This document shows, piece after piece, positions 57,695 through 60,663 of a stretch of 64,000 nucleotides of DNA. Under the pieces are notes generated by a model. The model did not search any database. It worked only from the letters and a program-made list of their open reading frames with translations, and had not been told where the DNA came from. The position numbers and the translations under genes are program-made. The stretch comes from an uncultured Nitrososphaeria archaeon (GTDB taxonomy: Archaea; Thermoproteota; Nitrososphaeria_A; Caldarchaeales; Wolframiiraptoraceae): assembly GCA_964637915.1 (NCBI GenBank), contig CAZWXN010000001.1, forward strand, positions 4,152 through 68,151, read 5' to 3'. Position 1 is the first letter of the stretch. Every line of letters begins with the position of its first letter.

Positions 57695-59065
57695 ATGATA
57701 AAGCTGTTAAGGGTGTCGGGGGATAGCTTAATACTCGGCGAGCGAGCCTCAGATCCTTGGATGAGCCTTAGGGATTTTCTCGGGGTCTTGGATGATGAGG
57801 GGCTTCTCGTCCATGTTAGGAGGCCCGTCTCAACGAGATATGAGGCTGCCGCGATAATGAAGAGGCTCGATCCGAGGCCTGTATTATTTCATGAGGTGCG
57901 TGAGGCCCCGGGCTTCAAGCTTCTCGGAAACCTCTGCGCCGATAGGAGGATCCTAGCAAGGGCTCTAGGAATCTCGGAGCGAGATCTGCTAAGGAGAATT
58001 GTCGAGGCGATGGAGAATCCCGGAAAGGGTGAGATCGTAGAGGATCCGCCATGCCAGGAGGTCGTGATAGATAATCCGGATCTTAGGAGGCTTCCCTTCC
58101 TCATTTTCGGGGAGAGGGATGGCGGCCCATACATGACTGCCGGGATAGTGATCGCCCGGGATCCAGAGCTGGGGCATAATGCGAGCTATCATAGGCTCAT
58201 GCTCTTGGATGAGAGGAGGGTTGCGGCGAGGATCCTGCCAAGACACCTCGACGAGTTCATCAGGAGGGGTGTTAGGAGGATCGCTATAGCCGTGGGTAAT
58301 CATCCAGCATTCATGCTGGCGGCAGCTGTTACTTGGAGGCTGGGCGTCAGCGAGCTCGATATAGCCGCCGCGCTCGCCCCGATAAGATATGCCAGGGCCA
58401 TGACGAGCGATATCCTCGTCCCGGCCGACTGCGAGCTCGTCCTGGAGGGGACGATAACGGATGAGAGGGCTGATGAGGGGCCGTTCATCGACATAACAGG
58501 GACATATGATATCATGAGGAAGGAGAGGGTTATCGAGATCGAGTGTATCACCATGCGGAGGGGCCCGATATTCCAGCAGATACTCCCGGCTGGCAGCGAG
58601 CATAGGAACTTGATGGGGATGCCGAGGGAGGCGGCGATATACGCTGAGGCATCAAAGGTCTGCGATGTCGTTGATGTGAGGCTTACGCCGGGCGGCTGCA
58701 ACTGGCTCCACTGCGCGATAAGCATTAGGAAGAGGAGCGATGATGATCCAAGAAGGGTTATTGAGGCCGCGCTGAGAGCCCATCAAAGCCTCAAGCACGT
58801 TATAGTTGTTGATGATGATATAGATCTCTCGAATCCATATGACTTGGAGTGGGCGATAGCGACGAGGGTTCAGCTGGATAGGGATCTTGTGCTTAGGCCG
58901 AATGAGCTTGGATCATCCCTCGACCCGTCAGCCGATCAGGTTACTAGGAGGACTTGTAAGGCTGGCTTGGATGCGACGATCCCGCTCACAGCTGATAGAA
59001 GCAAGTTCATTAGGGCCAAGATACCGGGAGAAGATGAGGTTAGGATAGAGGATTACGTGAAGTGA
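57695..59065 (+). CDS. UbiD-family decarboxylase (candidate trans-anhydromevalonate-5-phosphate decarboxylase)
   Basis: 456 aa UbiD fold; immediately upstream of AcnX-type large and small subunit genes. Confidence 0.8.
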   Translation: MIKLLRVSGDSLILGERASDPWMSLRDFLGVLDDEGLLVHVRRPVSTRYEAAAIMKRLDPRPVLFHEVREAPGFKLLGNLCADRRILARALGISERDLLRRIVEAMENPGKGEIVEDPPCQEVVIDNPDLRRLPFLIFGERDGGPYMTAGIVIARDPELGHNASYHRLMLLDERRVAARILPRHLDEFIRRGVRRIAIAVGNHPAFMLAAAVTWRLGVSELDIAAALAPIRYARAMTSDILVPADCELVLEGTITDERADEGPFIDITGTYDIMRKERVIEIECITMRRGPIFQQILPAGSEHRNLMGMPREAAIYAEASKVCDVVDVRLTPGGCNWLHCAISIRKRSDDDPRRVIEAALRAHQSLKHVIVVDDDIDLSNPYDLEWAIATRVQLDRDLVLRPNELGSSLDPSADQVTRRTCKAGLDATIPLTADRSKFIRAKIPGEDEVRIEDYVK

Positions 59066-59071
59066 GCCTGG

Positions 59072-60259
59072 ATGTATCTGACGAGCCTTGAGGAGAGGAT
59101 GCTCGCGGGCGAGTATGGCTATGCGGCCCAGAAGGCCATGGAGATACTCGTGGCGCTGGGGAAGATCTATGGCGCGGAGAGGATGATAGAGATAAGGAGC
59201 GCGCAGATCTCCGGCGTCTCCTATAGCAATCTCGGCGAGGAGGGGCTCGAGTTCCTCCTCAAGCTCGCGGAGGATGGGCGTGTCAGGGTTCCCACGACGC
59301 TGAACCCCTGCGGGATGGACTTGGAGGAGTGGCATAAGATGGGCGTCCCCGAGGATTTCGCGGAGAAGCAGCTGAGGGTCATCGAGGCTTATCAGAGGCT
59401 CGGCGTCGAGCCCACGCTCTCCTGCACACCCTATCTAGCTGGCAACATGCCGGGGTTCGGGGATCATGTCGCGTGGAGCGAGAGCTCAGCCGTGATCTAC
59501 GTCAACTCGGTCATCGGCGCGAGGACTAATCGTGAGGGTGGGCCGAGCGCCCTAGCAGCCGCAATCGCCGGCAGGACGCCGCTATATGGTCTCCACCTAG
59601 ATGAGGCTAGGAGGCCTACAATAATCGTGAGGGCGCCGAGGATAAGCGGGGAGCTTGATGCCTCAGCCCTCGGCTACCATGTCGGCAGGGTCATAATGAG
59701 CGGCGTGCCGCTATTCACCGGGCTCGGAGCGGTCTCAAGAGATCAGCTCAAGGCCCTCGGAGCAGGCCTCGCATCATCGGGTGGAATAGCGCTCTTCCAT
59801 GTCGAGGGCATCACGCCGGAGGCGCACAGGTATTCTAGAGAACATGTTGAGGACGTGATCGAGGTAACGAAGAGTGATCTGCGGGATGAGATTGAGATGC
59901 TTGGCGAGGGATTTGATGATCCCGACCTGATATTCATCGGCTGCCCACACGCATCCATCGAGGAGTTAACGGAGGTATACCTGCTTCTCGGTGGCAGGAG
60001 GGTCTCGAGGAGATTCTGGATATTCGCCTCTAGGGCTGTAAGGGCTCAGGCCGAGAGGATAGGGCTGCTGGCGAAGCTCGGGGAGCTCGGTGTCAGGATC
60101 TACTGCGATACATGCCCGGTCGTGGCGCCGCTCAAGAGGCTAGGGTTCAAGAATGTGCTCACAAACTCGATGAAGGCAGCATACTACCTGAGAAATCTTC
60201 ATGGGGTTAGGGTTCGGCTTAAGCCTCTCCAAGGGCTCGTGGAGGATGCAGTAAGATGA
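59072..60259 (+). CDS. Aconitase X catalytic (large) subunit, DUF521 (candidate phosphomevalonate dehydratase large subunit)
   Basis: 395 aa with DUF521/AcnX-type pattern; stop overlaps the small-subunit start. Confidence 0.8.
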   Translation: MYLTSLEERMLAGEYGYAAQKAMEILVALGKIYGAERMIEIRSAQISGVSYSNLGEEGLEFLLKLAEDGRVRVPTTLNPCGMDLEEWHKMGVPEDFAEKQLRVIEAYQRLGVEPTLSCTPYLAGNMPGFGDHVAWSESSAVIYVNSVIGARTNREGGPSALAAAIAGRTPLYGLHLDEARRPTIIVRAPRISGELDASALGYHVGRVIMSGVPLFTGLGAVSRDQLKALGAGLASSGGIALFHVEGITPEAHRYSREHVEDVIEVTKSDLRDEIEMLGEGFDDPDLIFIGCPHASIEELTEVYLLLGGRRVSRRFWIFASRAVRAQAERIGLLAKLGELGVRIYCDTCPVVAPLKRLGFKNVLTNSMKAAYYLRNLHGVRVRLKPLQGLVEDAVR

Positions 60260-60663
60260 GGATCATCTTAGAGGGTAGGGTGATATGGGAGGGGCATGTT
60301 GAGGGAGAGGCGCTCGCGGCGCGGCAGCCGATAAGCTTCTATGGTGGAGTTGATCCGGAGACCGGGAGGATAATTGAGAGGGGGCATGAGCTCGAGGGAG
60401 TATCAATTGGCGACAAGATACTCGTCTTCCCATATGGTAAGGGCTCGACCGTCGGCTCATATATTCTTCTAAGGCTGAAGAGGCGCGGCCTGGCGCCGAG
60501 AGCGATAATAAACCAGAAGTGTGAGCCCATAATAGCTGTCGGGGCGATAATAGCGGAGATACCATGCGTTGACTTAATAGATGTTGGCAGGATCTCGACG
60601 GGGGATATCGTGAGGGTTGATGGGCCGAGGGTTGAGGTCTGGAGGAGGACGCCCGAGCCCTAA
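60256..60663 (+). CDS. Aconitase X swivel (small) subunit, DUF126
   Basis: 135 aa; PISFYGGVDPETG ... VFPYGKGSTVGSY pattern of DUF126. Confidence 0.75.
   Translation: MRIILEGRVIWEGHVEGEALAARQPISFYGGVDPETGRIIERGHELEGVSIGDKILVFPYGKGSTVGSYILLRLKRRGLAPRAIINQKCEPIIAVGAIIAEIPCVDLIDVGRISTGDIVRVDGPRVEVWRRTPEP

Follow-up and report, generated by a model that had tools for sequence, protein, structure and literature searches.

In a Wolframiiraptor-like archaeon of the Aigarchaeota (Caldarchaeales), three adjacent genes within a 64-kb stretch of DNA (contig CAZWXN010000001.1 of assembly GCA_964637915.1; the whole stretch is called the window here) very probably encode both signature steps of the archaeal mevalonate pathway. 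The first step would be catalysed by phosphomevalonate dehydratase (PMDh), whose large and small subunits belong to the aconitase X (AcnX) family, and the second by anhydromevalonate phosphate decarboxylase (AMPD), a UbiD-family enzyme dependent on prenylated FMN (prFMN). This reading draws on homology, on catalytic and ligand residues, on tree placement with a characterised enzyme and on a conserved gene neighbourhood; the enzyme activities are predicted from sequence.

An earlier note on this DNA had described a UbiD-like gene followed after 6 nt by the AcnX large-subunit gene (AcnX-L), which in turn overlaps the small-subunit gene (AcnX-S), and the open reading frames (ORFs), the junction letters and the Pfam matches bear this layout out. 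All three ORFs were confirmed on the + strand: the longest first ORF runs 57695..59065 (456 aa), and the two AcnX ORFs are listed in Table 1. The first gene ends in TGA (59063-59065) and a 6-nt spacer, GCCTGG, separates it from the ATG of AcnX-L; the ATGA at 60256-60259 is common to AcnX-L and AcnX-S (a 4-nt overlap). Pfam matches are far beyond chance for all three products: UbiD_N/UbiD/UbiD_C for the first (core E=6.6e-53), AcnX (PF04412) for the second (522 bits, E=1.2e-156) and AcnX_swivel_put (PF01989) for the third (121 bits, E=1.8e-35). Co-transcription of the three genes as an operon is presumed; the stop codon of AcnX-S shares letters with that of a convergent ORF, and the + strand shows no T-run 3' of AcnX-S. 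Copies of the operon that are 91-100% identical occur in several independent assemblies. The 90% clusters of the window's AcnX-L, AcnX-S, ProRS and L3 proteins include proteins of Candidatus Wolframiiraptor gerlachensis and W. allenii (Aigarchaeota; Caldarchaeia / Nitrososphaeria_A), and the top UbiD matches carry Nitrososphaerota or Thaumarchaeota metagenome-assembled genome (MAG) labels.

The UbiD homolog as a probable anhydromevalonate phosphate decarboxylase

Tree placement, signature residues and gene neighbourhood together identify the UbiD homolog as a predicted AMPD. The tree was built from 150 representatives of 50% clusters and named archaeal sequences, and the set included the AMPD of Aeropyrum pernix, the 2,5-furandicarboxylate decarboxylase HmfF of Pelotomaculum thermopropionicum (PtHmfF; 6H6V/6H6X), AnInD and E. 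coli UbiD. It is a bootstrapped neighbour-joining tree of 164 sequences over 427 columns, with E. coli UbiD as the root. The A. pernix AMPD (P0450) was reached via Fervidicoccaceae members of clusters from 20 representatives, and its locus (L014) was verified by the termini of the PMDh small subunit encoded there (…EVLRYRS, LGPGQP), which match published primers (PMC10040528).

In 100 of 100 bootstraps the window protein pairs with A. pernix AMPD and PtHmfF falls outside the pair, and the same grouping against PtHmfF is obtained when a Methanothrix sequence replaces that of A. pernix. The earlier note had said that a grouping with ubiquinone/menaquinone-type decarboxylases would refute its reading; in the neighbour-joining analysis the protein falls with the characterised A. 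pernix enzyme, away from both E. coli UbiD and HmfF. Ninety-seven sequences make up the clade that holds both the window protein and A. pernix AMPD. Its archaea include Aeropyrum, Pyrodictium, Acidilobus, Fervidicoccus, Caldisphaera, Methanothrix, Marsarchaeota and Micrarchaeia, and its bacteria include two Chloroflexi (Chloroflexi/Anaerolineae) and an Elusimicrobiota MAG.

The alignment columns that separate the two sides of the tree tell the same story. There are 11 of these (D244, R157, T248, D250, R253, M285, W315, L316, H341, S343 and S385), and the window protein is in the AMPD state at every one. The residues of the prFMN site, N140, R145, E239, D244 and L387, align with N150, R155, E261, E266 and L409 of AnInD (residue roles as given in PMC8988006); N140, R145, E239 and L387 are family-wide and present in the window protein. 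In the active-site triad (R145/E239/D244), the acid at position 244 is Asp on the AMPD side and Glu in HmfF and AnInD. Arg157, Arg253 and His341 are conserved on the AMPD side and absent from HmfF, and they are candidates for holding the phosphate of the substrate.

Profile models place the protein outside other UbiD subfamilies. The generic TIGR00148 was the sole NCBIfam model above its cutoff; the UbiD model NF008175 scored 111.7 (cutoff 788), the menaquinone-decarboxylase model TIGR03701 scored 140.3 (cutoff 495.9) and the VdcC model missed its cutoff by a wide margin. A role as a ubiquinone or menaquinone decarboxylase was excluded by these failed cutoffs. Identity is 28% to E. coli UbiD, 40% to A. 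pernix AMPD and 44% to the Methanothrix protein, the nearest named relative in the tree. Relatives at 46-67% identity bear the UniRef label 'Anhydromevalonate phosphate decarboxylase'.

The AcnX pair as a probable phosphomevalonate dehydratase

The two AcnX proteins are predicted to form a PMDh, AcnX type IIb. The best PDB match for each is the T. kodakarensis enzyme TkAcnX (TK1249/TK1248, 7CNR/7CNS; PMC8184944): chain 7cnr_A (TK1249) for the large subunit (E=2.6e-110, 372 bits; 49-51% identity) and 7cnr_B (TK1248) for the small subunit (E=1.1e-35; 53% identity). Proline dehydratase matches are weaker (E=8.4e-69 for the large subunit and 5.6e-17 for the small), and NCBIfam NF003046 recognises the small subunit (168 vs a cutoff of 163). 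The window's large subunit shares 41-52% identity with large subunits of the PMDh type, 41% with that of A. pernix (ApPMDh-L) and 36% with AtAcnX. In this set, from which types IIa and IIc-f are absent, AtAcnX is the most distant member in every pairwise comparison for every PMDh-type sequence.

The residues that define the type agree with these scores. A PMDh (AcnX type IIb) has its three cluster cysteines at sites A, 1 and B, and the type I site C is without one (PMC10040528, PMC8184944); type IIa is reported to have two cysteines only, and type I a C-x-C motif (PMC8184944). In the window's large subunit Cys118, Cys291 (site 1) and Cys348 correspond to C110, C283 and C342 of T. kodakarensis and to C122, C297 and C356 of A. 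pernix, and position 350 is Val (motif C348-P-V350), which means that the type I site C cysteine is absent. In the T. kodakarensis structure, mevalonate 5-phosphate is held by a phosphate pocket (G48, V49, S50, N53, N79) and a carboxylate/hydroxyl site (E129, S130, S131, K361, Y365, with S62/T63 of the small subunit; PMC8184944). The corresponding large-subunit contacts G48, V49, S50, N53, N78, E137, S138, S139, K368 and Y372 are all conserved in the window (Asn78 is the same residue as Tk Asn79, with the numbering shifted), and Ser64-Thr65-Val66 of the small subunit equals Tk S62-T63-V64.

Landmark positions taken from PMC8184944 (15 in the large subunit, 4 in the small) are identical to T. 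kodakarensis at 13 of 15 and 3 of 4 sites. One of the two remaining large-subunit sites is Tk Asn79, which differs in its number alone (Asn78). The true departures, Ala47 of the large subunit to Ser47 and Leu27 of the small subunit to Tyr29, are the only changes among the cluster ligands and mevalonate-5-phosphate contacts, and both are the residues of A. pernix PMDh (Ap Tyr29). AtAcnX shares the aconitase-X fold family, and its carboxylate/hydroxyl contacts (Glu, Ser, Lys, Tyr) are homologous (PMC8184944); it differs in being fused into one polypeptide and in carrying a [2Fe-2S] cluster on the C-x-C motif and proline-specific residues. Its proline contacts Thr72, Asp203, Trp35 and Ile206 are replaced in the window by Val66(S), Ser47(L), Tyr29(S) and Ser50(L). 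The identity of the AcnX pair had been named beforehand as a possible refutation of the pathway reading; cysteines, substrate contacts and the best matches to TK1249/TK1248 favour PMDh over proline dehydratase, as the earlier note had it.

Gene neighbourhoods elsewhere and known systems

The order UbiD homolog, AcnX-L, AcnX-S recurs in four other loci (L001, L003, L016 and L017), each of which includes one or more further genes linked to the pathway. A UbiX-type flavoprotein gene lies just downstream of the triad in a Nitrososphaerota genome (L001) and directly upstream in Ca. Terraquivivens (L003), where the contig ends past AcnX-L. In an Anaerolineae bacterium (L016 8001-11909, GCA_054606515.1) the UbiD, AcnX-L and AcnX-S genes and an IP-kinase-like (isopentenyl phosphate kinase-like) amino-acid kinase gene all run in one direction; archaeal-type lower mevalonate genes are thus seen in a Chloroflexi bacterium. 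A contig of Micrarchaeia (L017 950-11848, JGI 3300014204) carries a near-complete mevalonate cluster: HMG-CoA reductase, HMG-CoA synthase-like, thiolase and DUF35-type OB protein genes along with UbiX, UbiD, AcnX-L, AcnX-S and an IP-kinase-like gene. Thirty-six metagenome UbiX loci span 6 kb or more; 12 of these have an AMPD-like gene nearby, 7 of them with the PMDh large-subunit gene as well.

A different setting surrounds the closest relatives of PtHmfF in the set, two tandem UbiD paralogs in a Bacillota MAG (L018 6536-9356, GCA_040756655.1). Their neighbours are xanthine-dehydrogenase-family (molybdenum-hydroxylase) genes, genes of meta-cleavage type (FAA hydrolase, acetaldehyde dehydrogenase and HMGL-like) and lactate-permease genes, and no AcnX gene was found at the locus. 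This suggests a role in heteroaromatic acid catabolism for the pair.

Among studied archaea, A. pernix APE_2078 (AMPD) and APE_2087.1/APE_2089 (PMDh) are the pathway's founding example (Hayakawa et al., 2018, as reported in PMC10040528 and PMC7976604). The earlier note likened the triad to that of A. pernix, and the likeness holds for the enzymes: the same three families are present, with 40% identity for AMPD, 41% for the PMDh large subunit and 40% for the small, and both have in common the AMPD-clade residues, the cysteines of the Fe-S cluster, Ser47(L) and Tyr29(S). It does not hold for adjacency: six unrelated genes separate the A. pernix AMPD gene from the PMDh genes about 4.6 kb downstream of it, whereas the window has one compact operon. 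In this respect Methanosarcina mazei is closer. Its genes MM_1526 (AMPD), MM_1525 (PMDh large subunit) and MM_1524 (PMDh small subunit), which have been used in experiments, are adjacent, as judged from consecutive locus tags and gene IDs, and prFMN synthase (MM_1871), IPK (MM_1763) and MVK (MM_1762) are encoded elsewhere in the genome (PMC12547664, PMC13198327), as is apparently the case for the window's organism. A scan of genome contigs with the back-translated M. mazei N-terminus MTYRDFIG (from a primer; PMC12547664) gave nine chance bacterial matches and no Methanosarcina; the native M. mazei AMPD gene may have a non-ATG start. A search with a representative of similar N-terminus (P0138) returned uncultured Halobacteriota, Micrarchaeia and Chloroflexi, again with no Methanosarcina.

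Proposed route to isopentenyl phosphate

By homology with the characterised enzymes, (R)-mevalonate 5-phosphate would bind between the two subunits of the heterodimeric PMDh, with its 3-hydroxyl coordinating the free iron of a [4Fe-4S] cluster. The cluster, expected to be oxygen-sensitive and held by Cys118, Cys291 and Cys348, would act as a Lewis acid, and Ser64 of the small subunit is the probable base that takes the C2 proton, giving trans-anhydromevalonate 5-phosphate and water (PMC8184944, PMC10040528). AMPD, using prFMN supplied by a UbiX-type synthase encoded elsewhere, would then decarboxylate trans-anhydromevalonate 5-phosphate, an alpha,beta-unsaturated acid, to isopentenyl phosphate. 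The chemistry is presumably a reversible 1,3-dipolar cycloaddition, a mechanism established for acrylic-acid substrates of UbiD enzymes (PMC7976604, PMC8988006). An IP kinase, also encoded elsewhere, would finally convert isopentenyl phosphate to isopentenyl diphosphate for isoprenoid ether lipids.

Weighing the assignment

Several observations weigh against the assignment. First, pairwise similarity fails to separate AMPD from HmfF: in BLASTP the UbiD homolog scores 270 bits against PtHmfF vs 221 bits against A. pernix AMPD. Second, His296 and Arg304 of PtHmfF are conserved in the window protein. Third, the tree is a neighbour-joining tree on corrected p-distances, not a maximum likelihood tree, and includes one experimentally characterised AMPD. 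Fourth, the enzyme of T. kodakarensis that serves as the reference formed crystals in an inactive state with a [3Fe-4S] cluster (PMC8184944, PMC10040528). Finally, no gene for UbiX, mevalonate kinase, IP kinase or HMG-CoA reductase was found in the 64-kb window or in the stretches next to it that were covered. A Pfam survey of the window's ORFs (the shortest few left out) found no UbiX (PF02441), GHMP kinase, IP kinase or HMG-CoA reductase, the sole amino-acid-kinase protein being an aspartokinase with ACT domains; nor did UbiX, mevalonate kinase, IP kinase or HMG-CoA reductase appear among the called genes of near-identical contigs, which reach about 7 kb beyond the right edge of the window and about 3.7 kb beyond the left. 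When metagenomes were scanned with a related UbiX, no locus could be attributed to the window's organism. The expectation that genes for UbiX, mevalonate kinase and IP kinase lie in another part of the genome is a sound one.

The alternative that survives best accepts both enzymes as true orthologs and holds that a route through phosphomevalonate decarboxylase (PMD) and IP kinase coexists with theirs or dominates over it. Homologs of PMD have been reported from Nitrososphaeria and Nitrososphaeria_A (PMC11052028), and a published description has Pmd and Ipk in use in the sister family Calditenuaceae (PMC12979851); because PMD is reported in the same class, one contig does not show exclusive use of the AMPD route. 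Against this stand the operon itself, intact, compact and preserved at 91-100% identity in several independent assemblies, and the window and flanks, in which nothing suggests a PMD gene. A coexisting or dominant PMD route is on balance unlikely.

Far less probable is a decarboxylase of (hetero)aromatic acids, HmfF-like or other, as the identity of the UbiD homolog, which would then stand next to the AcnX genes by chance and outside isoprenoid synthesis. Its closest solved structure is PtHmfF (E=3e-82, 39% identity, full length), many of its relatives are named '2,5-furandicarboxylate decarboxylase 1' by JGI, and the BLASTP scores and shared residues given above point the same way. The PDB holds no AMPD structure, however, which biases any ranking by best PDB match, and an HmfF best match is uninformative, since the subfamilies are close neighbours: even the A. 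pernix AMPD has 38% identity to PtHmfF. The pairwise best match was dropped for this reason as a criterion between AMPD and HmfF. Of the shared residues, the His equivalent to H296/H297, the furan-specificity residue of HmfF (PMC7976604), is present in the window protein, yet it is invariant throughout the AMPD-side clade; the active-site N, R and E are likewise common to both enzymes. What separates them is the fully supported grouping of the window protein with A. pernix AMPD, on the side of the tree opposite HmfF, and the residues at which PtHmfF differs (D244 vs E, R157 vs L, R253 vs A and W315 vs R, Arg331 in PtHmfF). Gene context separates them as well: that of the window protein is biosynthetic, with the AcnX-L/S gene order recurring in distant archaea and an Anaerolineae bacterium alongside UbiX, IP kinase and HMG-CoA reductase genes, while the HmfF-side relatives sit in a catabolic neighbourhood without AcnX.

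That the AcnX pair is a dehydratase acting on cis-3-hydroxy-L-proline or another AcnX type is scarcely credible, for although AtAcnX has a substantial phmmer score against the large subunit (236 bits), the proline-dehydratase model NF051439 stays far under its cutoff (298 vs 700), and the PMDh cysteine pattern, the retained phosphate contacts, the replaced proline contacts and the distance of AtAcnX, in a set without types IIa and IIc-f, all argue for PMDh.

Gene start and coordinates

The first gene probably does not begin at 57695, where the earlier note placed its start; the true start of the AMPD gene is most likely the ATG at 57761, 66 nt further downstream, which gives a protein of 434 aa. 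This follows from three observations. First, UbiD homologs are mostly 431-435 aa long, span just 95% of the 456-aa ORF and begin at Met23 of that ORF. Second, a 91%-identical relative (L022) has indels of 16 nt and 4 nt upstream of Met23 that disrupt the reading frame. Third, the same relative keeps the box GGATAnCTTAATAC, with different flanking bases and spacing, and the start context CTTGnATGAGCCT. A start at 57761 leaves a divergent intergenic region of 92 nt, compared with 26 nt for a start at 57695, and from the end of TTAATA to the ATG there are 27 nt, a spacing that fits a putative archaeal TATA box with a leaderless mRNA. Gene callers on three near-identical contigs (L019-L021) also take the 456-aa start, probably 66 nt too far upstream.

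Table 1. Predicted genes and candidate signals of the operon (positions in the window)
Feature	Position	Strand	Basis
Predicted AMPD, prFMN-dependent UbiD family, 434 aa	57761..59065	+	Pfam, tree, residues, synteny; longest ORF from 57695
Predicted PMDh large subunit, AcnX type IIb, aconitase domains 1-3, 395 aa	59072..60259	+	Pfam, 7cnr_A match, residues
Predicted PMDh small subunit, AcnX swivel domain 4, DUF126, 135 aa	60256..60663	+	Pfam, NF003046, 7cnr_B match
TTAATA, candidate archaeal TATA box for a leaderless operon transcript	57728..57733	+	Inferred
GGAGGA, Shine-Dalgarno-like motif 9 nt 5' of the small-subunit ATG	60241..60246	+	Inferred; read directly from sequence

Other features of the window

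The convergent ORF whose stop overlaps that of the PMDh small-subunit gene (60660-61130, - strand) encodes 156 aa with an N-terminal hydrophobic anchor and several cysteines. It has no Pfam or NCBIfam match; it is present in the near-identical contigs L019-L021 and absent from the 91% relative L022. On the other side, divergent from the AMPD gene, lies a gene for a stand-alone 121-aa LigD 3'-phosphoesterase-domain protein (57303-57668, - strand), followed by SufC (56554-57279) and SufBD (55373-56578). SufC and SufBD were considered as a linked Fe-S supply for PMDh and rejected: the linkage occurs only in close relatives (L019-L022), not in the four other loci with the triad, and the Suf-PMDh neighbourhood is probably coincidental.

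Further away, a ribosomal run on the - strand (43201-50860) comprises L3, L4, an L23-sized ORF, L2 and S19, interleaved with non-ribosomal genes: a PEBP-family protein (47319-47894), an aspartyl-protease-like ORF (43201-43551) and, in overlap with an ECF-S-like call (44192-45370), a polytopic membrane ORF (45223-46383). At 40723-43147 an NrpR-type nitrogen repressor gene (40723-41700, - strand) is divergent from a glutamate dehydrogenase gene (41879-43147, + strand), plausibly a regulator and its target. The region 31852-34527 holds a 294-aa ORF without a Pfam match and then a 595-aa protein whose sole match is a zinc-dependent phospholipase C domain (residues 175-258), and a tRNA-Ala(TGC) lies just downstream of the gene for the latter (34662-34735).

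Meaning for the pathway and the lineage

This is an ordinary housekeeping operon of a pathway that has already been described. Both enzymes, their cofactors, the adjacent gene arrangement and the near-universal spread of the pathway among archaea, including Thermoproteota, are published (PMC10040528, PMC12547664, PMC11052028), and the current understanding of the pathway is unchanged. For annotation, the residue and context signature separates AMPD from close HmfF-like relatives where best-hit annotation fails. Generic or misleading labels ('UbiD family decarboxylase', '2,5-furandicarboxylate decarboxylase 1', 'predicted aconitase' and 'DUF126') could be replaced by AMPD and PMDh, large or small subunit.

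For the organism, the operon would mean that a hot-spring lineage barely cultured, or not at all, has genes for the ATP-saving archaeal mevalonate route. The literature describes Wolframiiraptoraceae as strict anaerobes and thermophiles of hot springs (PMC12979851). AMPD and PMDh genes are carried by the window's contig, by Ca. Terraquivivens and by other Nitrososphaerota relatives, in contrast with the report on Calditenuaceae; this would mean that members of Caldarchaeia differ in their lower mevalonate pathway, or else that one of the annotations is incomplete. A more specific idea, that Wolframiiraptoraceae keep an oxygen-sensitive PMDh and AMPD as a compact operon uncoupled from UbiX while Calditenuaceae use PMD, is a speculative one that we think improbable, and a genome that lacks UbiX and obtains prFMN in another way is still less likely. 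If both reports hold, the lower mevalonate pathway would have been swapped at the family level within one archaeal class, possibly in a manner tied to oxygen.

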